Assembly: GCA_049303905.1 (NCBI GenBank)
Contig: JBAQNP010000005.1
Span: 61,655 to 125,654, forward strand
Length of the DNA stretch: 64,000 nt
Direction: 5' to 3'
Origin: Candidatus Moraniibacteriota bacterium
Lineage (GTDB): Bacteria; Patescibacteriota; Minisyncoccia; Moranbacterales; UBA2206
The notes beneath the pieces were generated by a model. It had not been told where the DNA came from, did not search any database, and was given only the letters and a program-made list of their open reading frames with translations. Shown piece after piece: positions 2,207-61,060 of this stretch (the first letter of the stretch is position 1; every line of letters begins with the position of its first letter). The translations under genes and the position numbers were made by a program.

Positions 2207-4765
2207 ATGTATATCTTCAGCCCTAAAAATTCTACCGGATCATCCGGCAAAAAACGTTTTAAAATTAATTGGAAATTCCTACGAAAATCGGCTTTGATTT
2301 TTTTTGGCGCTATCTTGCTTTTTGTTATTGCGGTTTTCGCTTGGTTTGCCAAGGATCTTCCAAGCCCTGGGAATCTGAAGAATCGCGTCGTCATTCAATC
2401 AACTAAGATCTATGATCGCAGTGGAAATCATATTCTTTATGAAGTCCACGGAGAAGAAAAAAGAACGGAAATCCCCTTTTCCCAAATGCCGGAAAGTTTG
2501 CGTTATGCTACTATCGCCCTGGAAGATCAAAGTTTCTATAATCATATCGGTATTCAACCGAAAAGTATTTTGCGCGCTGCTCTAAAGGATGTTTTCAAGT
2601 TTGGCGCTTCTCAAGGTGGATCAACTATCACCCAGCAACTTATCAAGCAATCCCTCCTGACCTCAGAAAAAACTTTCACAAGAAAAATAAAAGAAGTTAT
2701 TCTGGCTATCGAACTAGAACAAAAATTTTCCAAAGACGAAATCTTAGCCATGTATCTTAACGAGATTCCTTATGGCTCTAATGCTTATGGCGTTGAAGCG
2801 GCCGCCCAAACTTTTTTTGGTAAACATGCCAGCGAACTAACACTGGATGAATCCGCTATCTTAGCTTCCCTACCTCAAGCGCCTTCTCGATATTCACCTT
2901 ATGGAACCCACACAGAAAACCTCAAGGCTCGTCAAGAGTATGCATTGAGTCAAATGGCTCGCTTAGGTTATATAACTCAAGATCAAGCCAATGAAGCAAA
3001 GGCAGTGGATATTTTTTCTAAGATAAAAACTTTTTCTGATAATATCAGTGCCCCACATTTCGTAATGTATATTAAAGAATCTTTAGAAAAAAAATATGGG
3101 GCTGAGGCGGTTGAACAAGGTGGACTAAAAGTTTATACCACCCTTGATTGGGATAAGCAAAAAATCGCTGAGGAAGCCATCAAAAACCACAGTGAAAAAA
3201 ATGCCACCACCTACAAGGCCAACAATCAGGCACTTGTGGCGATGGATCCAAAAACTGGTCAGATTTTAGCCATGGTAGGTTCAAAAGATTATTTTGGCAA
3301 AGCCGTTCCTGCCGGTTGCGTGTCTGGAAAAAATTGTAAGTTTGAAGGCAATTTCAATGTGGCTACTGCTCTTCGCCAACCCGGCTCATCCTTTAAGCCC
3401 TATGTCTATCTAACCGCATTTTCCAAAGGCTATACCCCAGAAACAAATCTTTGGGATGTAGACACTAATTTTTCTACTGATGATGGAAAAGAATATAATC
3501 CAAAAAATTATGACGGCGAAAATCGAGGTTTACTTAAGATGAAAGACGCGTTAGCAATGTCACTTAATGTTCCTGCAGTAAAAACACTTTATCTCGCTGG
3601 GGTGCAAGAATCCATAGATACAGCTCATAAAATGGGTATCACGACCCTAAAAAATCCTAAAGATTATGGTCTTTCTTTAGTTCTTGGTGGAGGTGAGGTA
3701 AAATTACTTGATCATGTTAATGCTTTTTCCACCTTTGCTACAGGCGGAATTCATCATTCCACTGTTTCTGTTTTAAAAGTTGAAAGCGGATCAGGTGAAA
3801 TTTTAGAAGAATATAAACCGAGCGACGGACAAAGAGTGATCGAAGAAAAACATGTCGCGATGATAGACTACGTTTTATCCACTAATGAACTTCGCGCTCC
3901 GGTATTTGGAGAAAACAATCCACTCAAATTTGAAAATCGTCCTGTGGCAGCTAAAACTGGCACTACCAATGAATGGCGCGATGGTTGGACTGTTGGGTAT
4001 ACTCCATCTTTAGTCGCGGGTGTTTGGGCAGGGAATAATGATAATTCCATAATGGCCGAAGGGGCGGATGGATCCTATGTTGCCGCACCAATCTGGCGTG
4101 AATTTATGGAAAAATCTTTAGTTAATTATGATATTGAAAAATTTCCGGAATACAAAAAAGATGAAGAAGAAACAGGAAAAGATGTGCTAGATGGAAAACT
4201 TGATGACAAAAAAGAAATCCGCGTCTGTAAGATTCCCGGCTCTGACGATTATTGTTTAGCTAATGATAATTGCCCAGAATCTGAAAGAGAGAAAAAGAAA
4301 TTCGCCGACGCGCATTCTATTTTATATTATGTAAAAAAAGATGATCCCCGTGGAGACAAACCAGAAAAACCCGAGGATGATCCGCAGTTTAAGGGTTGGG
4401 AAAAAGCCATTGAAAAATGGTTGGACAAAAAAGAAGGTTATTCTTCTCGACCAACTCCAGAAAAAGAATGTCGGTCAGATGATTTTAAGGATTTTGATCC
4501 AAGTATAAAAATATCAGCGCCTTCTAGTGTTAGCTCTTCTTCTTTTACTATAAAAGTAAAAGCAGATGCGCCATTTGGAGTGGATAAGATAACTTTGTCT
4601 ATTGAAGGCGAGGAAGTTAAATCATCCTCTGAATCCTCTTTTAGTTATGACTATTCAGTTCCTGATTCCAAGAAAAATACTACTCTTTCAATTAAGGCCA
4701 CTGTCAAAGATAAAAATGGCGACAGTGATTCCGATAACACATCCGTGAAAACAAATATTCCCTAA
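2207..4765 (+). CDS. Class A penicillin-binding protein (PBP1A: transglycosylase plus transpeptidase) with a C-terminal Ig-like extension
   Basis: N-terminal TM segment. GT51 motifs (EDQSFYNHIGI, GGSTITQQL). Transpeptidase motifs SSFKP (SxxK) and KTGTT. The Ser/Thr-rich C-terminus has Big-like repeats. Confidence 0.85.
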   Translation: MYIFSPKNSTGSSGKKRFKINWKFLRKSALIFFGAILLFVIAVFAWFAKDLPSPGNLKNRVVIQSTKIYDRSGNHILYEVHGEEKRTEIPFSQMPESLRYATIALEDQSFYNHIGIQPKSILRAALKDVFKFGASQGGSTITQQLIKQSLLTSEKTFTRKIKEVILAIELEQKFSKDEILAMYLNEIPYGSNAYGVEAAAQTFFGKHASELTLDESAILASLPQAPSRYSPYGTHTENLKARQEYALSQMARLGYITQDQANEAKAVDIFSKIKTFSDNISAPHFVMYIKESLEKKYGAEAVEQGGLKVYTTLDWDKQKIAEEAIKNHSEKNATTYKANNQALVAMDPKTGQILAMVGSKDYFGKAVPAGCVSGKNCKFEGNFNVATALRQPGSSFKPYVYLTAFSKGYTPETNLWDVDTNFSTDDGKEYNPKNYDGENRGLLKMKDALAMSLNVPAVKTLYLAGVQESIDTAHKMGITTLKNPKDYGLSLVLGGGEVKLLDHVNAFSTFATGGIHHSTVSVLKVESGSGEILEEYKPSDGQRVIEEKHVAMIDYVLSTNELRAPVFGENNPLKFENRPVAAKTGTTNEWRDGWTVGYTPSLVAGVWAGNNDNSIMAEGADGSYVAAPIWREFMEKSLVNYDIEKFPEYKKDEEETGKDVLDGKLDDKKEIRVCKIPGSDDYCLANDNCPESEREKKKFADAHSILYYVKKDDPRGDKPEKPEDDPQFKGWEKAIEKWLDKKEGYSSRPTPEKECRSDDFKDFDPSIKISAPSSVSSSSFTIKVKADAPFGVDKITLSIEGEEVKSSSESSFSYDYSVPDSKKNTTLSIKATVKDKNGDSDSDNTSVKTNIP

Positions 4766-4788
4766 GAATTGAAATTTTTTTCCACTAA

Positions 4789-4820
4789 AAAACTCCGGCA
4801 ATCCGGAGTTTTTATTTTTA
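4789..4820. terminator. Rho-independent terminator hairpin downstream of the PBP gene
   Basis: AAAAAACTCCGG-caat-CCGGAGTTTTTATTTTT: a GC stem followed by a U-tract. It lies between convergent genes. Confidence 0.7.
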
Positions 4821-4831
4821 TAAGTTTTATT

Positions 4832-5278
4832 TTAGGTCTCTTTTTTAATTGGTTTATCAATATTTCCAATTTGGTTTTTACTAAAAAAATAGAAAAATGG
4901 AATGACCACAAGAAGTGAAACAAGATGCATTGAAGAAAAAATATAATTCATCACACTACTTCCATCAAAAAAAACAATTCTAAAAACAAATAAAAACACA
5001 CAAAGATATATTGTGGAAATTCTCACAATATTTGTATTGTCTTTTATAGCAAAAGTTTTAGTTATAAATTTTGCTGAATAAATTATACTTATCCAAACGA
5101 GAAAAAATTTCACTGCCTCACCCAAGATTGCCAACCAAACAATCACTCCGAAATTATTAGCTATGCCTTTTACAATATATCCAAAAATTGCACTAACTAA
5201 AAATGGTGCAAAAACCCCAGCTAGCATCCAATGAATCAAAGCAATTTTCCAATCTTGTATTTTCTTTTTCTTTTTCAT
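4832..5278 (-). CDS. Hypothetical small membrane protein
   Basis: The 148-aa ORF has 4 predicted TM segments. No recognisable family. Confidence 0.4.
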   Translation of the reverse strand: MKKKKKIQDWKIALIHWMLAGVFAPFLVSAIFGYIVKGIANNFGVIVWLAILGEAVKFFLVWISIIYSAKFITKTFAIKDNTNIVRISTIYLCVFLFVFRIVFFDGSSVMNYIFSSMHLVSLLVVIPFFYFFSKNQIGNIDKPIKKET

Positions 5279-9693: not shown

Positions 9694-11073
9694 TTAATTT
9701 ACTGCATATAAAAGATCTTTTAAATGAGTGATTTCTTCTTCGAGCCTTTCATCTATTTTAATTTCTTTGGAAATTTTTTCATAAGCATGCATAGCTGTAG
9801 TATGATCGCGACCACCTAATTTATCACCAATTCCTGGGTAAGAGAAAGAAAGTTCAGTTCGCATAAGAAACATCGCTATTTGACGAGGCTTTACCACCTC
9901 TTGTTTTCTGTTTTTAGCTACTAAATCATCTGGGGATATTTCATAAAAATCAGAAACAGCCTTAATAATATGTTTATGATTAATGCCTTTTTTCTTACCA
10001 CTAGAGATAATATCAGACAGAATTTGCTTTGTATAAGCTGAATCTAGTGATTTTTTGGTTAATTGAGCGCTTACAGATACACGATTTAGCGCACCTTCTA
10101 GCTCGCGAATATTGTTTTTAATGTTAGTGGCAATAAATTCTAGAGCCTCTTCGGTTATTTCTACTCCATTTTGAGCGGCTTTTATTTTTAAAATAGCTAG
10201 TCTAGTCTCAAGATCTGGCTTAGAAACATCTGCAATCATCCCACCTTCAAAGCGCGAACGCAGTCTTTCCTCAAGAATTTGAATGGCTTTAGGAGCGCGA
10301 TCGCTAGAAAGAACTATTTGCTTATTGAGCTGGTAAAGATAATTAAAAATATGGAAAAATTCCTCCTGAGTCTTCTCTTTTCCGGAGATAAATTGGATAT
10401 CATCAATAATAAGCAGGTCTATTTTTTGATAATATTCCTTAAATTCCTGAATTCTTTGATTTTTTATAGAATCTATTAAATCACTCGTGAATCTTTCGGA
10501 AGAAATGTATTTGACTCGAGTCTGAGGATTTATTTTTAGCGCCTCATTACCAATAGATTGAATGAGATGGGTTTTTCCTAATCCTACGCCACCATAAATA
10601 AAAAGTGGATTATAGACATTTCCTAGGCTCTTTGAGACAGCATAGCAAGCAGCTCGAGCTAATTCATTACTTCCTCCGATAACAAAATTATCAAAGATAT
10701 ATTTTGGGTTTAAATTACTTTCTTGGCCTATTGGTGGCTTTTTTTCATAAAAAATAGGTGATTTTTTGGGAGCTGAAACAGCATCGACGGTTATTTCTTT
10801 GTTTATTTTGGGAAAAGATTGGGTTGGACCGGAGGAAATCAAGCAAGAAACTGACTTTATATCATCCTGAATATTTTTCAAGGCTCTTAAAATATACAGA
10901 TCGTACTTATTTTCGAGCCATTCTTTAGCAAAGCCATTTGGCACGCCAATAACCACATGGCCGTCCTTAAGGGAAAGAATAGAGGTGTTTTTAAACCAAG
11001 TGATAAAATTAGCCTTAGAAATAGAAAGTTCTATTTCTCCTAGGGCTGTTTGCCAAAGTTCCTCGTTGGTCAT
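9694..11073 (-). CDS. dnaA: Chromosomal replication initiator protein DnaA
   Basis: Walker A GGVGLGKTHL. IIDDIQF box. Sensor and DNA-binding domain (RPRQIAMFLMRTEL…GGRDHTTAMHA). Start placed at the internal Met (MTNEELW) rather than at the ORF-track start. Confidence 0.9.
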   Translation of the reverse strand: MTNEELWQTALGEIELSISKANFITWFKNTSILSLKDGHVVIGVPNGFAKEWLENKYDLYILRALKNIQDDIKSVSCLISSGPTQSFPKINKEITVDAVSAPKKSPIFYEKKPPIGQESNLNPKYIFDNFVIGGSNELARAACYAVSKSLGNVYNPLFIYGGVGLGKTHLIQSIGNEALKINPQTRVKYISSERFTSDLIDSIKNQRIQEFKEYYQKIDLLIIDDIQFISGKEKTQEEFFHIFNYLYQLNKQIVLSSDRAPKAIQILEERLRSRFEGGMIADVSKPDLETRLAILKIKAAQNGVEITEEALEFIATNIKNNIRELEGALNRVSVSAQLTKKSLDSAYTKQILSDIISSGKKKGINHKHIIKAVSDFYEISPDDLVAKNRKQEVVKPRQIAMFLMRTELSFSYPGIGDKLGGRDHTTAMHAYEKISKEIKIDERLEEEITHLKDLLYAVN

Positions 11074-18853: not shown

Positions 18854-18955
18854 TGTCATTCCTGCGAAAGCAGGAATCTAGTGTAGAAACTTAGTGATTT
18901 GAGACTGGATTCCTGCTTTCGCAGGAATGACAATATACACAAGCCCTTCAGGAGG
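18854..18955. terminator. Cluster of GC-rich hairpins between convergent genes (bidirectional terminators)
   Basis: ATTCCTGCGAAAGCAGGAAT and ATTCCTGCTTTCGCAGGAAT together form an outer TGTCAT…ATGACA inverted repeat. A third hairpin is AGCCCTTCAGGAGGGCT. Confidence 0.6.
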
Positions 18956-32385: not shown

Positions 32386-32492
32386 TTATCAAATATCTCT
32401 GGTTTGAAATTTTTTACTTAAAAATTCATTGAAAATTGAAAACTGAAGCTTGTTTTTGTATTTTGTTCGTTTCATTCGCATGTGGTTCGCCC

Positions 32493-32533
32493 GCCTCGAC
32501 TCGCGGAGACCGCTTGTCGACGCGAGGCGGGTA
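32493..32533. repeat. GC-rich ~42-bp palindromic element (CCCGCCTCG…GTCGACG…CGAGGCGGG)
   Basis: It stands out in an AT-rich genome. Near-identical copies at 43778-43819 and 60967-61013 (reverse complement). Confidence 0.75.
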
Positions 32534-32551
32534 GATTTGCGTCGCTATATA

Positions 32552-36442: not shown

Positions 36443-36492
36443 AAATATTTAGTCATTGCGAAGGAGCGTAGCGACTGTGGCAATCTCGTATT

Positions 36493-37368
36493 TTAATCTT
36501 GAGATTGCTTCGCTTTGCTCGCAATGACAGGTAGGGAGTTGGCTATTTTTTTCCAATCCTCCACGCTTAGTTCTTGTGCTCTTTGTTTTGGCGTAATGCC
36601 AATTTTTTTTAGTTTTTCCTCTACTTCTTTTTTGTCTAATTTGAGACTAGCGGATAAATTATTGACCAGTGTTTTTCTTTTAGACGAAAATCCCGCCTTA
36701 ACAATTCTAAAAAAATTCCCAGCCCCCTTTTCTTTAGTAAGGGGAATGGTTGTGGACGAGGTAGTGGATTGAAAAGGAGTAATTTTTATCACTGCCGAAT
36801 CCACTTCTGGCACTGGAAAAAAACTTTCTTTGTCAACATAAAATAGTAATTCCGGCTTGGCATAGTATTGCACACTTACAGCTAGAATACTCATTTGTCC
36901 GGGATTACTACAAATACGCTCCGCTACTTCCTTTTGCACCATCAGAATCATTTCACTTGGTGGAAACTTAGTTTCTAGAAAGAGTTGGATAATGGGCGAA
37001 GTAATATAATATGGAATATTGGCAACAACTTTGTAATGAATTGTGCCACCTTCTCCTTTGTAAGGAGAGGGGCTGGGGGTGAGGTTTGAAATGATTTCTG
37101 GCAAATTAATTTTTAAAATATCAGCATTTATTATTTCTATTTTTTTACTATCCTTATATTGTTTTTTTAATTTATTAGCCAGAGCTCCATCAACCTCGAT
37201 AGCCAAAACCTTGCCAGCATGCTTAAATAATTTTTCCGTGAGCACACCTTTTCCTGGTCCAATTTCAATTACAAAATTGTCCGATTTTAAGTTGGCGGAT
37301 TGAATAATTTTTTCTAAAACAGTTGTATCTCTTAGAAAATTTTGTCCTAAAGATTTTATTGGTTTCAT
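36493..37368 (-). CDS. rsmA: 16S rRNA (adenine1518/1519-N6)-dimethyltransferase RsmA/KsgA, carrying an in-frame palindromic insertion
   Basis: SLGQNFL, EIGPGKGVLT and NIPYYITSPI are KsgA motifs. The segment LTPSPSPYKGEGG is encoded by the ~40-bp GC-rich palindromic element at 37048-37088. Confidence 0.85.
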   Translation of the reverse strand: MKPIKSLGQNFLRDTTVLEKIIQSANLKSDNFVIEIGPGKGVLTEKLFKHAGKVLAIEVDGALANKLKKQYKDSKKIEIINADILKINLPEIISNLTPSPSPYKGEGGTIHYKVVANIPYYITSPIIQLFLETKFPPSEMILMVQKEVAERICSNPGQMSILAVSVQYYAKPELLFYVDKESFFPVPEVDSAVIKITPFQSTTSSTTIPLTKEKGAGNFFRIVKAGFSSKRKTLVNNLSASLKLDKKEVEEKLKKIGITPKQRAQELSVEDWKKIANSLPVIASKAKQSQD

Positions 37369-43740: not shown

Positions 43741-43855
43741 ATTTACGAAAATACGAATTAAACTAAATTACTAATTCGCCCAGCCTCGACTCGCGAAGAC
43801 GCTCGTCGACGCGAGGCGGGTACTTTCGCTAGATTCGTATTTTCGTAAGGATAAC
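43741..43855. repeat. Composite repeat: a TACGAA hairpin element (as at 28705-28797) interrupted by the GC-rich 42-bp palindrome
   Basis: The outer ~75 bp align almost base-for-base with 28721-28797. The inner block 43778-43819 matches 32493-32533. Confidence 0.8.
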
Positions 43856-45977: not shown

Positions 45978-46127
45978 TTTGTTAAAAAATAATTTTTATT
46001 TTATTGAAATATTATTTGTAGATTCGCATCGCTATTATTATTTTACAATAGATTTGAAAATTTGGGAAATGGGATATTTTAAAATTAAAAAGCGGAGAGT
46101 GATTATTGCATCACCTCCGCTTTTTTT

Positions 46128-46215
46128 ATTTGTCATGCTGAATTTATTTCAGCATCTCTTCTTTAGATCCTGAAACCCGCCTGCCGGCGAGGCATGGCAA
46201 GTTCAGGATGACAAG
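46128..46215. terminator. Nested-hairpin terminator element (TGTCATGCTGAA…TTCAGCATCT…ATCCTGAAC…GTTCAGGATGACAA) downstream of pnp
   Basis: A second copy lies at 57951-58015. This copy also carries a GC-rich palindrome insert (CCGCCTGCCGGCGAGGC). Confidence 0.65.
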
Positions 46216-50066: not shown

Positions 50067-51161
50067 TTATTTGTGAAGTTTCCGCATTTCTCTAAATTTC
50101 AGGACAACTTCACTTTCTGATTTGTGACGGAAGGCATAAGGACTTCTTTTTCGCGTCACTGAGAAAAAAGCTCCCATCATACCTTGAATGATTTCAAAAG
50201 GTATGAGACCTTTTTCATAAAGATGTATTGCCCCATTAATTTTCCTGAGATAATTTCTGGGCAAAAAAGTTTCTCCTCTAAATTTCAATCCCACGCCGGT
50301 GATTATAATCTGGCGTTTCTCTGCCAAATCAATTACGGCTGATTTTTTGTGACTGATTTGCAGTCCGGCATCAATAATTACTTGGCGAATTTTTTTTCGC
50401 ACTCTTTTTCCGATTGGCTTCAAAGAAGAAAAAGCCAAATCATCAAGAAATCTGGTAAAACGAAGATCATTTTTTTCACAAATCTCCGCTAATGGCGCAT
50501 CTAATAAATACGCCGCAAAGATGTTTGCTAGATCTACTGAAGCTGGCGCGCCGGTTTTTAGTCCCGTGCCAGACTTCAAGAAGCAATATTTTTTCAAGAA
50601 TTTGGAGAGTTTTTTTCTATTTTCCCAAGTTGTCATACAGAGAATATCCAGTAGTCTATCTCCGTCAATGTTATTATAGAAGCTATGAATATCGAGGAGA
50701 TAAAAATATCTTCCGTTCTTATGCTTTTCTACATTTCTCAGTGGACTCCAGCCGGTGATTCCACCGGTGGCAAAACGAAGGCCAACTGGAAGCTCGTTTA
50801 TCAATTCTTTACTTCTCAGAACATTTCGAACAAATGCGCGATGAATTAAGCGCATAGTGAGGTTTGGATTGTGGATAGTCCGAAATTTACGGGTATTTTT
50901 TATTGGATTGAAATCTTCCAACTTATATACTCTGAATTTCGGAGACTGAAAAGTGAAAAAACAGAAATAAAAGTAGAAAATCCAAAAATTCAAACTTGCT
51001 TGAATTTCCTTGACTTCGAAATCCGGTTTTTTTCCGAAAAAAATCTGATATAAATTGTCAAATAACATAGGTCGCCCCCTTATTATTGAATGTTTTTTTA
51101 TTTGTTTTAGTTTAAAGCAGAATAGCAGAACAGGGCATAATTGGCAAGTTTTTGGCGACAA
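50067..51161 (-). CDS. Retron-type reverse transcriptase
   Basis: RT motif 1 RKFRTIHNP. Motif 2 TGGITGWSPLRNVEKH (the retron NAxxH). Motif 3 YFYLLDIHSFY. Motif 4 GLKTGAPASVDLANIF. Motif 5 FLDDLAFS (the YADD-equivalent). The retron VTG motif appears as IITGVG. The true start may be Met32. Confidence 0.7.
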   Translation of the reverse strand: MSPKTCQLCPVLLFCFKLKQIKKHSIIRGRPMLFDNLYQIFFGKKPDFEVKEIQASLNFWIFYFYFCFFTFQSPKFRVYKLEDFNPIKNTRKFRTIHNPNLTMRLIHRAFVRNVLRSKELINELPVGLRFATGGITGWSPLRNVEKHKNGRYFYLLDIHSFYNNIDGDRLLDILCMTTWENRKKLSKFLKKYCFLKSGTGLKTGAPASVDLANIFAAYLLDAPLAEICEKNDLRFTRFLDDLAFSSLKPIGKRVRKKIRQVIIDAGLQISHKKSAVIDLAEKRQIIITGVGLKFRGETFLPRNYLRKINGAIHLYEKGLIPFEIIQGMMGAFFSVTRKRSPYAFRHKSESEVVLKFREMRKLHK

Positions 51162-51190: not shown

Positions 51191-54100
51191 ATGCATGAAA
51201 TATTGGAAAAACTTAATGCTCCGCAAAGAGAGGCGGTGACGACGACGGAAGGGCCGGTTCTCATTATTGCGGGGGCAGGATCGGGGAAAACGCGCGCACT
51301 AACACACAGGGTGGCGTATTTGATTTGTGAAAAAAAGATTAGTCCTCGAAGAATTTTGGCGGTGACTTTTACTAATAAAGCGGCGGGAGAGATGAAGGAA
51401 AGGATTAGGGAATTACTTAGTGCAAATACGCGAATTGATGCGAATGATGCGAATGACCTCACCCCCAGCCCCTCTCCTTATAAAGGAGAGGGTAGCCAAT
51501 ATGATATGCCAACAGTCGGAACTTTTCATTCTATCTGCGTGAGGATTTTGCGTCATGAGATTGAGAAGATGGGATATAAAAGCTCTTTTAATATTTTTGA
51601 TGATCAAGATCAGCTGGCTCTCATGAAAAAAGTGATGAAAGAAATGGAAATTAACACCGATCAATTCAAACCAAAAGCAATTCTTGGCGCAATTTCCAAT
51701 GCGAAAAATGAACTCAAGAGTGCGGAGGAATTTTTAGCAGGAGTGGGTGGATATTTTGAAGAGATGGTGGCCAAGATTTATCTGAACTATCAAAAAAAAT
51801 TGAAAGATCAAGGTGCTTTGGATTTTGATGATATCTTGATGATTATAGTGAAGCTTTTCCAAAAGTTTCCAGAAGTTTTGGAAAAGTATCAGAATTTTTT
51901 TCAGTATATTATGGTAGACGAATATCAAGATACTAACCGCGCGCAATATTTGTTGGTAAAATTGTTGTCGGAAAAATATAAAAATTTGTGTGTGGTGGGT
52001 GATGATTGGCAATGTTTTCCGAGGGGAATAAAAATATCAGTGGATGACAAAAAAACCAAAAATATTGAGAAAATAAGAAAAGGAGATGCAATTATGTCAG
52101 CTTCAGGGCAAGGTGAGATTTGCCCTCAATCGATAGAAAGAAATAAAAAATCTAAATTCAAGGGAGAGCTAATAAAAATCACGACAAAATCAGGTAAAAG
52201 TTTAATGGCTACACCTAACCATATTCTTTTTTCTAAATTATCTTTAAGCGCAAATATATTCTATGTATATTTAATGTATAAAAAAGAGATAGGATATCGT
52301 ATTGGAATGGTAAAGGGAATTAGGATAGTTAAATCAAATGGACTTAATGCGGGATTAAATGTCAGGGCTAATCAAGAACGAGCAGACAGGATGTGGATTT
52401 TGAAAATTTGCCAGACAAAAACCCAAGCGCAATACTGGGAGCAATATCTTGGATTTTTTTATGGTATTCCGACGTTGGTTTTTATTGCGGGCAGTGGAAG
52501 AAAAATGAAATTTGAGCAAAAATATTTGGATGATTTGTATAAAAATATTAATACCTTAGAAAGAGTTAAGAAAATATTTTTAGATTTTAATTTAAATTTT
52601 GATTATCCTCATCATATTCCGCAATCAACCATAAGAAGTGGAATAAAAAGAGTTTCTGTTAACTTTACTTTATTTAGCGATCGCAGAAAAGGAATTTCAA
52701 TTAGCAATTGGGGAAGACACAGGATAAGCATTAATTCGAATGACAAAGAGACTAAAAAAATACTAGAGTTAGCTGGTTTCAAAACGAGAAAAGGAAAGAA
52801 GAATGATTGGCGATTGGAAATTTCTAGCAGAAAATATGAGGAAATGGAAAAGGTTCTAAATAAAATTATAAAAATTATTCCTAATATAGTGGTCACCAAA
52901 AGAGCGCTCTTAGCGGGAGGCAAAAGATTTTATTTTCAACCGGCGGGACATATCAGAGAAACAATGCTCGTGCCTATTTTAGAAAAAGGAAAAATTATTG
53001 AAGAGGAGATAGAAAAAGTTGAAAAAATAAAATATGCTGGTCCGGTTTATGATTTAGATGTAGCAAATGTGCATAATTATATTGCAAATAATTTTGTGGT
53101 GCATAATTCAATTTATGGATGGCGAGGAGCCAATATTCAAAATATTTTAGATTTTGAAAAAGATTATCCGCAGGCGCGCGTGATTAAGTTGGAGCAGAAT
53201 TATCGCTCGACGCAAAATATTTTAGACGCGGCTTATGGTGTGATTTCAAAAAACATTAATCGCAAGGACAAAAAAATTTGGACGGATAATCAAAGCGGGC
53301 ATCTTCTTTCTAGTTTTGAAGCAGAAGATGAAAAAGAAGAAGCACAGTTTATTGTGGATGAGATAAAAAAAATATGTCATCCTGAACTTGTTTCAAAATC
53401 TAATGAGGAGATTCCGGATCAAGTCCGGAATGACAAATACAGATTTTCCGATTTTGTAGTTCTCTATCGAACCAATGCGCAGTCTCGAATGATTGAAGAA
53501 GCGATGCTTCGAAATTCTATTCCGTACCGAATTATTGGCGGGGTAAAATTCTACCAAAGAAAAGAAATTAAAGATGTGATTGCATATCTGCGAGTGATTA
53601 ATAATTTTAATGATGAAACTTCGCTGGAACGAATTATTAATGAACCGAAGCGAGGGATAGGCGATGTAACACTGAGCAAGTGGATAAAAATAGCTCGATT
53701 AGATGAAAATAATTTAATAGATGCAGGGATTAAAATTAAACAGTTGCAAGATACAAAATACAAGATACAAGATACAAGACTGGATGCAATTGTGAAATTT
53801 TGCGAATTCATTCAGAGAATGTCAGAGCTCAAAGAAAAATTATCTCTTACTGATTTTATCCAAAAAATTTATAGTGAATCGGGGTATGAAAGATTTCTTA
53901 TGGACGGAACTGAAGAGGGAGAAATGAGAAATGAAAATGTTAGAGAGCTTCTCACTGTTGCAAAGAAATATGACGAGTATGAACCAATGGAAAGTTTGAA
54001 ATTATTTTTAGAAGAAGTAGCTTTGGTTTCTGACACGGATAATATTGATCAAGCTGTTGATGCGGTACATCTTATGACACTTCACAGTGCTAAAGGTTTA

Positions 54101-54577
54101 GAATTTAAAATTGTTTTTATTGCTGGGCTCGAAGAAGGGATTTTGCCACATTCCAGAAGTATGCTTAGCGACTCTGAAATGGAAGAAGAGAGACGCCTGA
54201 TGTATGTGGGAATCACGCGCGCTATGGAAAAAGTCTATTTGCTTTTTACTCGTATGCGAAATATTTTTGGTTCCACACAGATTAATGCTTCTTCAAGATT
54301 TTTGGAAGATGTGCCGGAGCATCTACTTGAGTCATATAACATGAAGCATGAAACATGTAACAAAAAACAAAGTGATAAGATTAGGCAAGGTTCGGAAAAA
54401 AATGCTTCATGCTTCATGCTTCATGCTTCATGTTTTAAGGACGGTGATCGGGTGCGACATGAGGTTTTTGGTGATGGCTTGATTGTTGCGAGTCAAGGCG
54501 ACATAATCACCGTCGCCTTTTCCAAGGCGGGACTCAAAAAACTTTCTACTTCAATCGCACACTTAGAAAAAATATAA
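51191..54577 (+). CDS. pcrA: ATP-dependent DNA helicase PcrA/UvrD, interrupted by an intein and carrying an in-frame palindromic insertion
   Basis: Walker A AGAGSGKTR. Motifs Ia, II (DEYQD) and IV-VI are present. Motif III reads VVGDDWQ|intein|SIYGWRGA. The N-terminal insert TPSPSPYKGEG is encoded by the palindromic element. Confidence 0.85.
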   Translation: MHEILEKLNAPQREAVTTTEGPVLIIAGAGSGKTRALTHRVAYLICEKKISPRRILAVTFTNKAAGEMKERIRELLSANTRIDANDANDLTPSPSPYKGEGSQYDMPTVGTFHSICVRILRHEIEKMGYKSSFNIFDDQDQLALMKKVMKEMEINTDQFKPKAILGAISNAKNELKSAEEFLAGVGGYFEEMVAKIYLNYQKKLKDQGALDFDDILMIIVKLFQKFPEVLEKYQNFFQYIMVDEYQDTNRAQYLLVKLLSEKYKNLCVVGDDWQCFPRGIKISVDDKKTKNIEKIRKGDAIMSASGQGEICPQSIERNKKSKFKGELIKITTKSGKSLMATPNHILFSKLSLSANIFYVYLMYKKEIGYRIGMVKGIRIVKSNGLNAGLNVRANQERADRMWILKICQTKTQAQYWEQYLGFFYGIPTLVFIAGSGRKMKFEQKYLDDLYKNINTLERVKKIFLDFNLNFDYPHHIPQSTIRSGIKRVSVNFTLFSDRRKGISISNWGRHRISINSNDKETKKILELAGFKTRKGKKNDWRLEISSRKYEEMEKVLNKIIKIIPNIVVTKRALLAGGKRFYFQPAGHIRETMLVPILEKGKIIEEEIEKVEKIKYAGPVYDLDVANVHNYIANNFVVHNSIYGWRGANIQNILDFEKDYPQARVIKLEQNYRSTQNILDAAYGVISKNINRKDKKIWTDNQSGHLLSSFEAEDEKEEAQFIVDEIKKICHPELVSKSNEEIPDQVRNDKYRFSDFVVLYRTNAQSRMIEEAMLRNSIPYRIIGGVKFYQRKEIKDVIAYLRVINNFNDETSLERIINEPKRGIGDVTLSKWIKIARLDENNLIDAGIKIKQLQDTKYKIQDTRLDAIVKFCEFIQRMSELKEKLSLTDFIQKIYSESGYERFLMDGTEEGEMRNENVRELLTVAKKYDEYEPMESLKLFLEEVALVSDTDNIDQAVDAVHLMTLHSAKGLEFKIVFIAGLEEGILPHSRSMLSDSEMEEERRLMYVGITRAMEKVYLLFTRMRNIFGSTQINASSRFLEDVPEHLLESYNMKHETCNKKQSDKIRQGSEKNASCFMLHASCFKDGDRVRHEVFGDGLIVASQGDIITVAFSKAGLKKLSTSIAHLEKI
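52013..53107 (+). mobile_element. Intein (365 aa) inside pcrA motif III, with a central endonuclease-like region
   Basis: Starts at Cys1 (CFPRG…). Block B TPNH. C-terminal blocks VYDLDVANVHNYIANNFVVHN followed by +1 Ser. Excision restores the canonical GDDxQSIYGWRGA. Confidence 0.8.
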
Positions 54578-56026: not shown

Positions 56027-57013
56027 ATGTCGCATAATATGAATATTAGAGATTATAAAACTCAATTTTTGGAATATTTGGAAGTGGAAAAACAGCGTTC
56101 ACCTAAAACGATTGAAAATTATGATCGTTATTTGGAAAAATTCTTAGTTTGGGCAAAAATTAGTGATCCAAAGGGTATTAATGATGATCTAATCCGAAGT
56201 TTTCGCCTCTATCTTAATCGATTTCAAAATGAAAAAGGCCAAAATATCAAGAGAATCACGCAAAATTATTACATTATTGCTATTCGATGTTTTTTAAAGT
56301 ATCTAGCCAAGAGAGACGTCAAAACTTTGCAGGCGGAAAAGGTAGAAATTGGAAAAACGCCAGAGCGAGAGGTGGATTTCTTGGAAAATAGCGAAGTGGA
56401 GAGGATTTTGGAGTCAGCTGGTGGGGTAAGCTTCAAATCTTTGCGTGATCGAGCCATTATGGAATTGCTTTTCTCAGCTGGACTTCGGGTTTCGGAATTA
56501 ACTAGCATTAATCGGGATAAATTGAATCTGAAAAGTGGAGAATTAAGTGTGCGAGGCAAAGGCAATAAGATTCGGGTAGTTTTTATCTCAGACACAGCTT
56601 CGGCGTCTCTTCGAGAATATCTCAAGAAAAGGGAAGATATTGATCCAGCTTTATTTGTGCGAGATGTGAAAGGTTTGGCGAAATTTAAGAAAAAAAATAA
56701 ATCCGCTGTAGAGACGAGGCAGTGCCTCGTCTCTATCAAGGATGATAATAATCTCCGCCTCACTCCGCGTTCTATTCAGCGAATTGTGAAATACTATGCT
56801 CTAAAGGCCGGAATCGTAAAAGATGTCCATCCGCATACCTTGCGTCATTCTTTTGCTACGGATCTTTTGATGAATGGAGCGGATATTCGCTCTGTTCAAG
56901 CAATGCTTGGCCATGCTTCGATCAATACTACTCAAATTTATACTCATGTTACCAATCCCCATCTCAAAGAGGTCCATCAGGCCTTCCATGCCAGAAGAAG
57001 GAAAAAAGATTGA
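56027..57013 (+). CDS. xerD: Tyrosine site-specific recombinase of the XerC/XerD family, with a palindromic in-frame insert
   Basis: Catalytic box HPHTLRHSFATDLLMNGADIRSVQAMLGHASINTTQIYTHV. The N-terminal SAM-like domain is present. A 27-bp perfect palindrome at 56709-56735 encodes AVETRQCLV. Confidence 0.8.
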   Translation: MSHNMNIRDYKTQFLEYLEVEKQRSPKTIENYDRYLEKFLVWAKISDPKGINDDLIRSFRLYLNRFQNEKGQNIKRITQNYYIIAIRCFLKYLAKRDVKTLQAEKVEIGKTPEREVDFLENSEVERILESAGGVSFKSLRDRAIMELLFSAGLRVSELTSINRDKLNLKSGELSVRGKGNKIRVVFISDTASASLREYLKKREDIDPALFVRDVKGLAKFKKKNKSAVETRQCLVSIKDDNNLRLTPRSIQRIVKYYALKAGIVKDVHPHTLRHSFATDLLMNGADIRSVQAMLGHASINTTQIYTHVTNPHLKEVHQAFHARRRKKD

Positions 57014-57920: not shown

Positions 57921-57950
57921 TCTGGAATAATATAATTTTGTCATGCTGAA

Positions 57951-58015
57951 CTTGTTTCAGCATCTTAATCGTTAGAGATCCTGAAACGAGTTCAGGATGA
58001 CAATCGAAGATTAAT
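57951..58015. repeat. Second copy of the TGTCATGCTGAA…GTTCAGGATGACAA nested-hairpin element
   Basis: It aligns with 46128-46215 minus the GC-rich insert. Confidence 0.75.
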
Positions 58016-60956: not shown

Positions 60957-60966
60957 AATATTTTTA

Positions 60967-61060
60967 CCTGCCTCGCGTCGACGAGCGGTCGTTTCCGCGA
61001 GTCGAGGCTGGCGAATTACGAATCTATACAAATATACTAATGTACGAATTATATAAAAAC
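60967..61060. repeat. GC-rich 42-bp palindrome (reverse-complement copy) followed by a TACGAAT-type repeat, upstream of ftsH
   Basis: cctgcctcgcgtcgacgagcggtcgtttccgcgagtcgaggctgg, then cgaattacgaatctatacaaatatactaatgtacgaatt. Confidence 0.75.

Follow-up and report, generated by a model that had tools for sequence, protein, structure and literature searches.

The ksgA gene of a Candidatus Moraniibacteriota bacterium (contig JBAQNP010000005.1) contains a GC-rich palindromic segment of 41 nucleotides (nt) that recurs, inverted, in pcrA on the same 64,000-nt, 35% GC stretch of DNA (the window, to which all positions refer unless another locus is named). The segment very likely belongs, as a single unit, to a dispersed family of GC-rich repeats, carried by ksgA as a tolerated in-frame insertion. 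A sequence-only reading had described it as the second copy of a dispersed element similar to the Rickettsia palindromic elements (RPEs), inserted in frame within ksgA without decay of the gene. That interpretation is essentially right and the finding is real. The comparison to RPEs holds as an analogy of behavior, but the element is 41 nt long rather than 100-150 nt, resides in a non-Rickettsia host, has the architecture of the BoxC/PIT (potential intrastrand triplex)/TMECO repeats of E. coli, and is distributed over many phyla. The unit, its sister copy and their host genes are as follows.

36493-37368, minus strand: host gene ksgA/rsmA, encoding the 16S rRNA A1518/A1519 dimethyltransferase; intact, 291 amino acids (aa).
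37045-37085, minus strand: repeat unit in ksgA, with the C-rich strand mRNA-sense; encodes N95-T109, NLTPSPSPYKGEGGT; identified by the 38/41 match to pcrA, shuffles, frame and hairpin.
51191-54577, plus strand: host gene pcrA/uvrD, 1128 aa, with an intein at about aa 273-640.
51456-51496, plus strand: sister copy in pcrA, encoding DLTPSPSPYKGEGS; placed in its host gene in the orientation and frame that the ksgA copy has in ksgA.

The repeat unit and its host gene

A repeat search of the window aligned 37045-37085 with 51456-51496 as an inverted match of 41 nt that is 93% complementary; the likeness between the two genes persists on re-inspection. The element had been placed at 37048-37088, where the best ungapped match to the pcrA copy is 36/41; moving the register 3 nt leftward gives the optimum. 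In 100 dinucleotide shuffles, no chance match to the 41-nt pattern occurred at three or fewer mismatches.

The ksgA open reading frame (ORF) is open throughout, with neither a frameshift nor a stop codon arising from the insert, and has the order ADILKINLPEIIS-NLTPSPSPYKGEGGT-IHYKVVANIPYY (the translation around the insert is NADILKINLPEIIS NLTPSPSPYKGEGGT IHYKVVANIPYY). Pfam RrnaAD covers residues 5-279, near the full length of the protein (E 2e-60), and a 100% identical protein, annotated as RsmA, is present in an NCBI Candidatus Moranbacteria metagenome-assembled genome (MAG). A separate look-up with the exact sequence of the window KsgA gave no entry. Every invariant KsgA column is retained in the homologue alignment. 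When the protein is aligned to solved structures of KsgA, its additional residues fall between the D(I/V)L motif (here DILK) and the NxPY motif (here NLPYY).

An AlphaFold model of KsgA, built on 39 homologues, has a mean pLDDT (predicted local distance difference test) of 84.5 and a pTM (predicted template modeling score) of 0.83, and it compares to KsgA crystal structures and 30S-bound cryo-EM structures with a TM (template modeling) score of about 0.8. Modeling had been proposed as a way of seeing whether the insert maps to a surface loop, and it does: the insert is a coil (residues 97-112) between helix 89-96 and strand 113-116 (beta4), just before NxPY, and the block has a pLDDT of 66-76. 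Helix-to-strand connections of Rossmann-type methyltransferases face away from the S-adenosylmethionine (SAM) and adenine pocket; by this topology the sheet would separate the insert loop from that pocket. On the model, the KsgA fold and catalytic motifs are left intact by the insert, and the motifs and fold predict a functional enzyme. The intact ORF, the nearly full-length Pfam match, the conserved columns and the structural agreement all bear out a tolerated insertion rather than gene decay.

Insertion and decay of repeats in ksgA

The closest homologues of the window protein (P0002, P0005 and P0008; 77-82% identity) lack the insert and have a loop of 10-12 aa, e.g. EIIKQNNFQK. DNA alignment revealed an empty site, AAAAATAATAATTTTCAAAAA, at the KsgA loop of locus L003 and another palindrome, GTAGAGACGAGGCACTGCCTCGTCTCTAC, at the loop site of L002, while the loop of the more distant L001 (65% identity) holds the same unit as the window. 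The loop could be delimited in 91 Moranbacteria-like KsgA homologues. Roughly half of these hold a loop insert, and the inserts fall into at least six families: that of the window unit; PHP..HPLPxGE; ..ERGLGGEG; VETRHCLVST; RHSERxxA..; and RGHSMSIMD / LPAGRQG. In a neighbor-joining tree the window KsgA is nested within a group of relatives whose loop is empty or holds another insert, and the family of the window unit occupies the loop in three separate places (P0001, P0031 and a clade of P0020, P0047 and P0078); the insert of P0047 is visibly decayed. The tree thus points to at least three separate gains of this family at the KsgA loop. Since many unrelated repeat families share the loop, the pattern argues for a filter that favors a permissive site over target preference of a single enzyme.

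One of these other families is also present in the window. The palindrome GTAGAGACGAGGCAGTGCCTCGTCTCT at 56700-56734 belongs to the family that fills the KsgA loop of a close relative (VETRHCLVST in L002/P0003; L002 about 9750-9800), and therefore different repeat families swap at one protein loop.

The picture of ksgA as the site of a single second copy needs to be qualified in that the gene holds two further repeat-derived segments.

36724-36761, minus strand: older, decayed copy in ksgA; same orientation as the fresh copy, other open frame, TSSTTIPLTKEKG from TSPPAPLLIKERG.
36452-36530, no strand assigned: unrelated GC-rich palindrome GTCATTGCGA...TCGCAATGAC (GTCATTGCGAAGGAGCG...CGCAATGAC) overlapping the ksgA stop codon.

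The first of these is a fourth, weaker match to the family consensus (score 34 versus at most 26 in shuffles; approximately 76% identity counted by hand). It has drifted toward AT, is common to P0002, P0012 and P0077, and coincides with residues 203-209 of the model, where pLDDT is below 50. The palindrome at 36452-36530 supplies an extra C-terminal tail, PVIASKAKQSQD, of approximately the last 12 residues, which most homologues are without; residues 281-291 have a pLDDT of 37-50. With a fresh unit, a decayed copy and a palindrome-derived tail in one gene, ksgA so records the insertion, retention and decay of repeats.

Architecture of the unit

On its G-rich strand, the ksgA unit is made up of three blocks.

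37049-37058, plus strand: C-block, the 5' hairpin arm, CCTTCTCCTT, with two mismatches to the family consensus CCCCTCTCC.
37062-37072, plus strand: G-block 1, the 3' hairpin arm, AAGGAGAGGGG, following the 3-nt loop TGT at 37059-37061.
37076-37084, plus strand: G-block 2, GGGGTGAGG, an exact mirror of G-block 1 following the 3-nt loop CTG; a potential triplex third strand.

The order is C-block, loop, GGAGAGGGG, CTG, GGGGTGAGG, which is to say a hairpin of 9-11 bp plus a mirror block. In both the ksgA and pcrA copies, 9 of 9 triads are ones allowed in purine-motif triplexes (G.G:C, A.A:T, T.A:T). A generic triplex-motif finder recovered both copies and no other match in 64 kb, and altogether the window holds two fresh copies and the decayed one. 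By Watson-Crick folding the sense-strand RNA hairpin of the ksgA unit has a free energy of -16.6 kcal/mol (z -3.8), and the sequence has no U-tract after the hairpin.

In 244 units from the retrieved loci the blocks are invariant, the loops variable and the flanks unconserved. The conserved core, (c)CCTCACCCCCARCCCCTCTCC - loop - GGAGAGGGGAG, is sharply bounded, and the family consensus, (c)CCTCACCCCCAR...GGAGAGGGGAG, has no GTAG or CGTC tag; the GTAG found in pcrA is a variant of GGGGAG confined to that one copy. The positions that close the loop are paired in 88% of units, against 61% in shuffles, using CG, TA, AT and GC pairs, and the next position beyond is paired in 55% versus 23%; the hairpin is therefore under structural constraint across the family. 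No target duplication or conserved target motif was detected at unit sites apart from a preference for A or C at position -1.

Readings of the segment as a CRISPR array, a tRNA or a terminator were rejected in view of the unconserved flanks, irregular spacing and missing U-tract. An Rfam scan of the ksgA unit site by E-value returned nothing relevant, nor did a literature search by the nucleotide and peptide sequences of the unit.

Distribution of the family

The unit is not specific to the candidate phyla radiation (CPR), and it is not a Rickettsia RPE. A search pattern of CACCCCCARCCCCTCTCC-N3-9-GGAGAGG matched 107 IMG/VR contigs, where the exact CPR-type pattern had no matches, and at least 120 GTDB genome stretches in more than 10 phyla with host GC contents of 0.35-0.73. 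Among the matches listed, the GTDB genomes include Chloroflexota, Cyanobacteria, Bacteroidota, Alpha-, Beta- and Gammaproteobacteria, Planctomycetota, Acidobacteriota, Nitrospirae, Armatimonadota, Verrucomicrobiota, Bipolaricaulota and Patescibacteria. By BLAST, the unit was also detected on plasmids of cultured strains (cyanobacteria, Cupriavidus and Prevotella), one plasmid copy being in frame within a DISARM methyltransferase gene. About 75% of the copies across other phyla are outside long ORFs.

Of 5426 complete E. coli genomes, 693 have an inverted doublet of near-identical units, located in the phnK-phnL spacer or at one equivalent site. This doublet is a presence/absence polymorphism, and in strain 600468 (L352 3000-3110) its units are about 35 nt apart. 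A different arrangement is seen in an Anaerolineales MAG (L128 440-790), where at least eight units form a head-to-tail array with a period of about 42-45 nt; no such array was seen in the other loci.

Copies from CPR-like genomes were retrieved with the AT-loop variant by an exact search of Joint Genome Institute (JGI) metagenomes, which yielded 30 stretches, mostly of GC 0.32-0.46. About 9 of about 20 distinct CPR-type sites are inside long ORFs, and the hosts are PcrA (the window site, in three contigs), LigA, PurL, UvrC, Lgt, an M23 peptidase and a membrane protein. Because three related metagenome contigs are filled at the window's PcrA site, the pcrA insertion is shared by relatives. UvrC is represented by two different genes, each with several repeat-derived inserts, and that of L247 has an in-frame inverted doublet. 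Intragenic copies occur only in the three frames that lack stops, F1 (TSPPAPLLIKERG), F2 (LTPSPSPYKGEG) and, on the opposite strand, R2 (APLSFIRRGAGGEV), and their orientation ratio is roughly 2:1, as a stop-codon filter predicts.

How the insert arose and why it persists

In the process that we favor, a unit would have inserted in the DNA for the loop between the helix and beta4 of KsgA, in one of its three stop-free frames, lengthening the loop by about 11 residues. The insertion would be selfish or neutral and not of benefit to KsgA. In compact CPR genomes, the surface loops of housekeeping proteins, being permissive, may be among the few locations where copies survive, intergenic space being scarce and selection presumably removing all but in-frame, surface-loop insertions. 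Spread could proceed via a trans-acting enzyme or via a repair or replication process acting on the folded single strand; the sole candidate enzyme for which evidence was found is an endonuclease of the DUF559 family (Vsr-like PD-(D/E)XK), taken up in the next section. Inserted copies would later decay.

Several observations weigh against this account. The window allele exceeds the empty allele by 33 nt, so either native loop codons were lost or the ancestral loop differed. Neither a target-site duplication nor a clean excision boundary is visible in the DNA alignment at the ksgA insert. The relatives compared include no genome of more than 95% identity with an empty site, and the 64-kb window yielded neither a transposase gene nor one for DUF559. 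That four pcrA orthologues seem to conserve the unit perfectly was considered as evidence for selection and was rejected, as these loci had been retrieved by an exact match to the unit.

It is unlikely that the hairpin is kept, and has been exapted rather than merely tolerated, for a role as nucleic acid, be it a translational pause, mRNA stabilization or processing, or a signal in replication or recombination. The stability of the sense-strand RNA hairpin (-16.6 to -17.6 kcal/mol, z about -3.6 to -3.8) and the structural constraint on the stem throughout the family are what such a role would lead one to expect, and in Paceibacterota units occupy successive intergenic spacers of one gene cluster. 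On the other hand, the closest orthologues lack the unit at the ksgA site, there is no U-tract, and studies of PIT/TMECO detected neither promoter nor terminator activity and saw polymerases unaffected in vivo (summarized in PMC4666352).

Another explanation would have the Pro/Gly-rich loop as an adaptive feature of KsgA, such as a contact with the 30S subunit or a partner, maintained for its peptide, with the nucleotide likeness to pcrA being secondary. The recurrence of the family at the KsgA loop in at least three lineages and the retention of the pcrA insert in three related contigs could be taken in its favor. We nevertheless consider it very improbable: the same nucleotides are mostly intergenic or in unrelated genes and yield unrelated peptides from three open frames, the nearest orthologues are without the insert, many unrelated repeat families occupy the same loop, and the insert has low model confidence and no packed structure while an older copy is decaying.

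An artefact of assembly, binning or chimera formation has almost nothing to recommend it beyond the source being a MAG and the potential of short GC-rich repeats to mislead assemblers. The ksgA ORF keeps its frame, three independent metagenome assemblies reproduce the pcrA site, the ksgA-loop insert is present in an independent Logan assembly (L001), and cultured strains, E. coli among them, have the unit in their finished genomes and plasmids.

A candidate partner: DUF559 endonucleases

Under the favored account of a dispersed, tolerated repeat, the means of spread may lie with genes located near the units. When all ORFs within 120 nt of the 244 units were clustered, with no neighbor family preselected, DUF559 was the largest cross-taxon family next to the units (Pfam E 1e-33 to 3e-38). 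In 9 of 11 loci no more than 150 nt separate the DUF559 gene from a unit, and the arrangement is often unit > gene < unit. A complete cassette is found in the CPR-like L257 (GC 0.38) at approximately 4574-5028, where CCTCACCCCCAACCCCTCTCCTTATAAAGGAGAGGGGAG is followed by 38 nt and then by a DUF559 ORF whose stop codon is inside an inverted unit; the loop of the cassette unit, TTATAAA, is that of the window copies. Among the closest CPR homologues of the L257 DUF559 protein, 25 of 28 end in repeat-coded residues (..LPSPL and stop, or ..PSPYKGEGVGMR). The gene is syntenic across Paceibacterota, in the order FtsW-FolD-(orf)-DUF559-PAP2-SecDF, with units clustered within 2 kb; from this conserved synteny vertical inheritance follows, as for the RAYTs (REP-associated tyrosine transposases) that accompany repetitive extragenic palindromic (REP) sequences.

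For a reciprocal test, 80 DUF559 loci were chosen by homology alone. A strict-arm regular expression detected the exact unit at 1 of 80, and the association is therefore with the motif type and not with the exact sequence. Flanking inverted repeats of at least 16 nt were present at 15 of 68 DUF559 loci versus 0 of 136 controls of the same geometry. By the generic finder, triplex motifs numbered 0.46 per kb around the DUF559 gene versus 0.049 per kb elsewhere, about 9-fold; bins bearing a motif were 13 of 80 gene bins versus 11 of 326 other bins (Fisher p = 1e-4, with some loci related to each other). Several repeat families surround DUF559 genes, each with mirror G-blocks. The strict repeat-coded peptide was present in 5 of 129 diverse DUF559 representatives, an insensitive test in that units are usually outside the ORF.

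The DUF559 gene of E. coli K-12, ycjD, ends ..SPSP and stop within a degenerate unit. A canonical BoxC is found 168 nt downstream, before fabI; by our own estimate, from 23 copies in 4.64 Mb, the chance of a BoxC in this position is about 0.002. The K-12 ycjD-fabI spacer (L353 5200-5430) has its own peculiarity. Approximately the last 45 nt of ycjD are duplicated downstream (GGAGACGGTGCTGGAGAATATTC...), and each copy of the ycjD 3' end is followed by a degenerate triplex-type unit; the canonical BoxC comes after these. The layout suggests that the DUF559 gene of K-12 underwent rearrangement at its 3' end.

On these sequence associations we put forward, tentatively and with more doubt than confidence, that BoxC/PIT/TMECO-type repeats are the cognate repeats of DUF559 endonucleases, a second kind of "REPtron" with a fold unlike that of RAYTs, of which the ksgA and pcrA units would be non-autonomous copies. 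A DUF559 gene bracketed by inverted units would generate, maintain or process the dispersed copies. That most DUF559 genes have no such flank, and that the positive loci include mutually related ones, weighs against this partnership. No link of DUF559 or YcjD to repeats was found in the literature searched.

Other repeats in pcrA and the window

Directly 5' of the pcrA unit, at 51433-51455, is a 9-nt tandem repeat, GATGCGAAT (peptide DAN), that varies in copy number among pcrA orthologues (two in the window and in L234, fewer in L245 and L258). Two additional in-frame repeats occur in pcrA. The family TGTCATCCTGAACTTGTTTCA.../...CCGGAATGACA at 53373-53439 encodes HPELVSKSNEEIPDQVRNDK and has further copies at 46127-46176 and 57937-57965; CATGAAACATGAAGCATG-type repeats at 54326-54439 encode MKHETCNKK...CFMLHASCF. 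Directly upstream of pcrA and divergent from it (50067-51161, minus strand) is a 364-aa reverse-transcriptase ORF (Pfam RVT_1, E 2e-13).

Elsewhere in the window, a three-copy family of GC-rich palindromes, CGCCCGCCTCGACTCGCG...CGCGAGGCGGG, lies within AT-rich ATTCGTA/TACGAAT repeats (32468-32548, 43771-43837 and 60961-61024). Another short palindrome family is represented at 18854-18932 by the inverted repeat TGTCATTCCTGCGAAAGCAGGAATC (29 nt, 97%, spacer 21 nt). In related CPR contigs, pairs of bAvd and reverse-transcriptase genes resembling diversity-generating retroelements are found a few kb from the DUF559 or ksgA neighborhoods (L268 12192-13611, L269 6520-7939 and L002 18295-18687).

Significance

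The ksgA insert indicates that minimal CPR genomes, too, carry short selfish or neutral repeats. With intergenic DNA scarce, many copies would come to reside in essential genes, creating new surface loops that then drift. Inserts of this kind are a source of protein length variation that annotators and phylogeneticists should mask. With this family, an E. coli repeat that has been an orphan for 30 years (BoxC/PIT/TMECO) gains a range that covers many phyla and includes coding DNA. Were the DUF559 association to prove true, an uncharacterized nuclease family that includes E. coli YcjD, and the repeat with it, would gain a function testable in a model organism.

Comparison with known repeat systems

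The unit belongs to a known motif class (BoxC/PIT/TMECO-type) and displays a known behavior (in-frame insertion in the manner of REPs and RPEs). Its setting, in CPR housekeeping genes or as intragenic copies of this motif, is not described in the literature searched, where E. coli reports have the motif as intergenic, and searches for palindromic elements or RPEs together with CPR found nothing.

Elements of the RPE-1 type have a length of 100-150 bp and are not known outside Rickettsia. Like RPEs and intragenic REPs, the window unit is palindromic and resides in frame in genes that would stay functional, and its family includes genes with several inserts as well as in-frame dimers (L247, L243). 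The unit differs in being 41 nt long and cross-phylum, in its mirror third block, in its host (Candidatus Moranbacteria) and in its lack of a CGTC/GTAG tag; it is by length, tag and host that it is set apart from RPEs. The intragenic REPs that have been described bear a GTAG or CGTC tag, and together with RPE-4 and RPE-6 they favor replication and repair hosts: UvrA/B/C, UvrD/Rep helicases, DNA ligase and DnaE (Di Nocera et al. 2013, PMC3733652). The window-type hosts PcrA, UvrC and LigA echo this bias.

The closest likeness in architecture is to BoxC/PIT/TMECO. In each, a C-block is followed by a loop of 3-9 nt and a G-block complementary to the C-block, then by a 3-nt loop and a second G-block that is a mirror of the first; both are GC-rich, about 37-41 nt long, dispersed in multiple copies, less conserved in loops than in blocks, and found as inverted doublets. 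The window sequence GGAGAGGGG-CTG-GGGGTGAGG and the E. coli sequence GGGAGAGGG-CCG/TTA-GGGTGAGGG are nearly superimposable. TMECO has the strict consensus CCCTCNCCC N3-6 GGGNGAGGG N3 GGGNGAGGG (Holder et al. 2015, PMC4666352), which is unmatched in the window, although the same regular expression matches the canonical E. coli K-12 unit near ycjD; the window units have A/T-extended stems and a register that is off by one G. In E. coli MG1655 the 23 TMECO copies are described as always intergenic, and the strict pattern is reported from Proteobacteria only (PMC4666352), whereas the window unit is intragenic and in frame in a 35% GC CPR genome. Single-stranded TMECO DNA folds into a triplex in vitro, and TMECO loci have raised local instability, with no link to mobile elements found (PMC4666352). 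By sequence, the window units would be a related variant of the BoxC/PIT/TMECO type rather than TMECO sensu stricto, with a triplex predicted from their architecture.

REPs, their doublet form the REPINs, and the RAYTs together make up the "REPtrons". Unlike the lineage-specific REPs, the unit described here is near-identical across phyla, and its neighbor is a Vsr-like PD-(D/E)XK endonuclease, not an HUH/Y1 transposase, the putative link being one of gene position. As in that system, the window family consists of short imperfect hairpins (the 20-40 bp class) that occur as singlets and as inverted doublets (L162, L169, L183, L144 and E. coli L352), and its repeats bracket a nuclease gene, here DUF559, that is present in single copy and inherited vertically, and are clustered about it.

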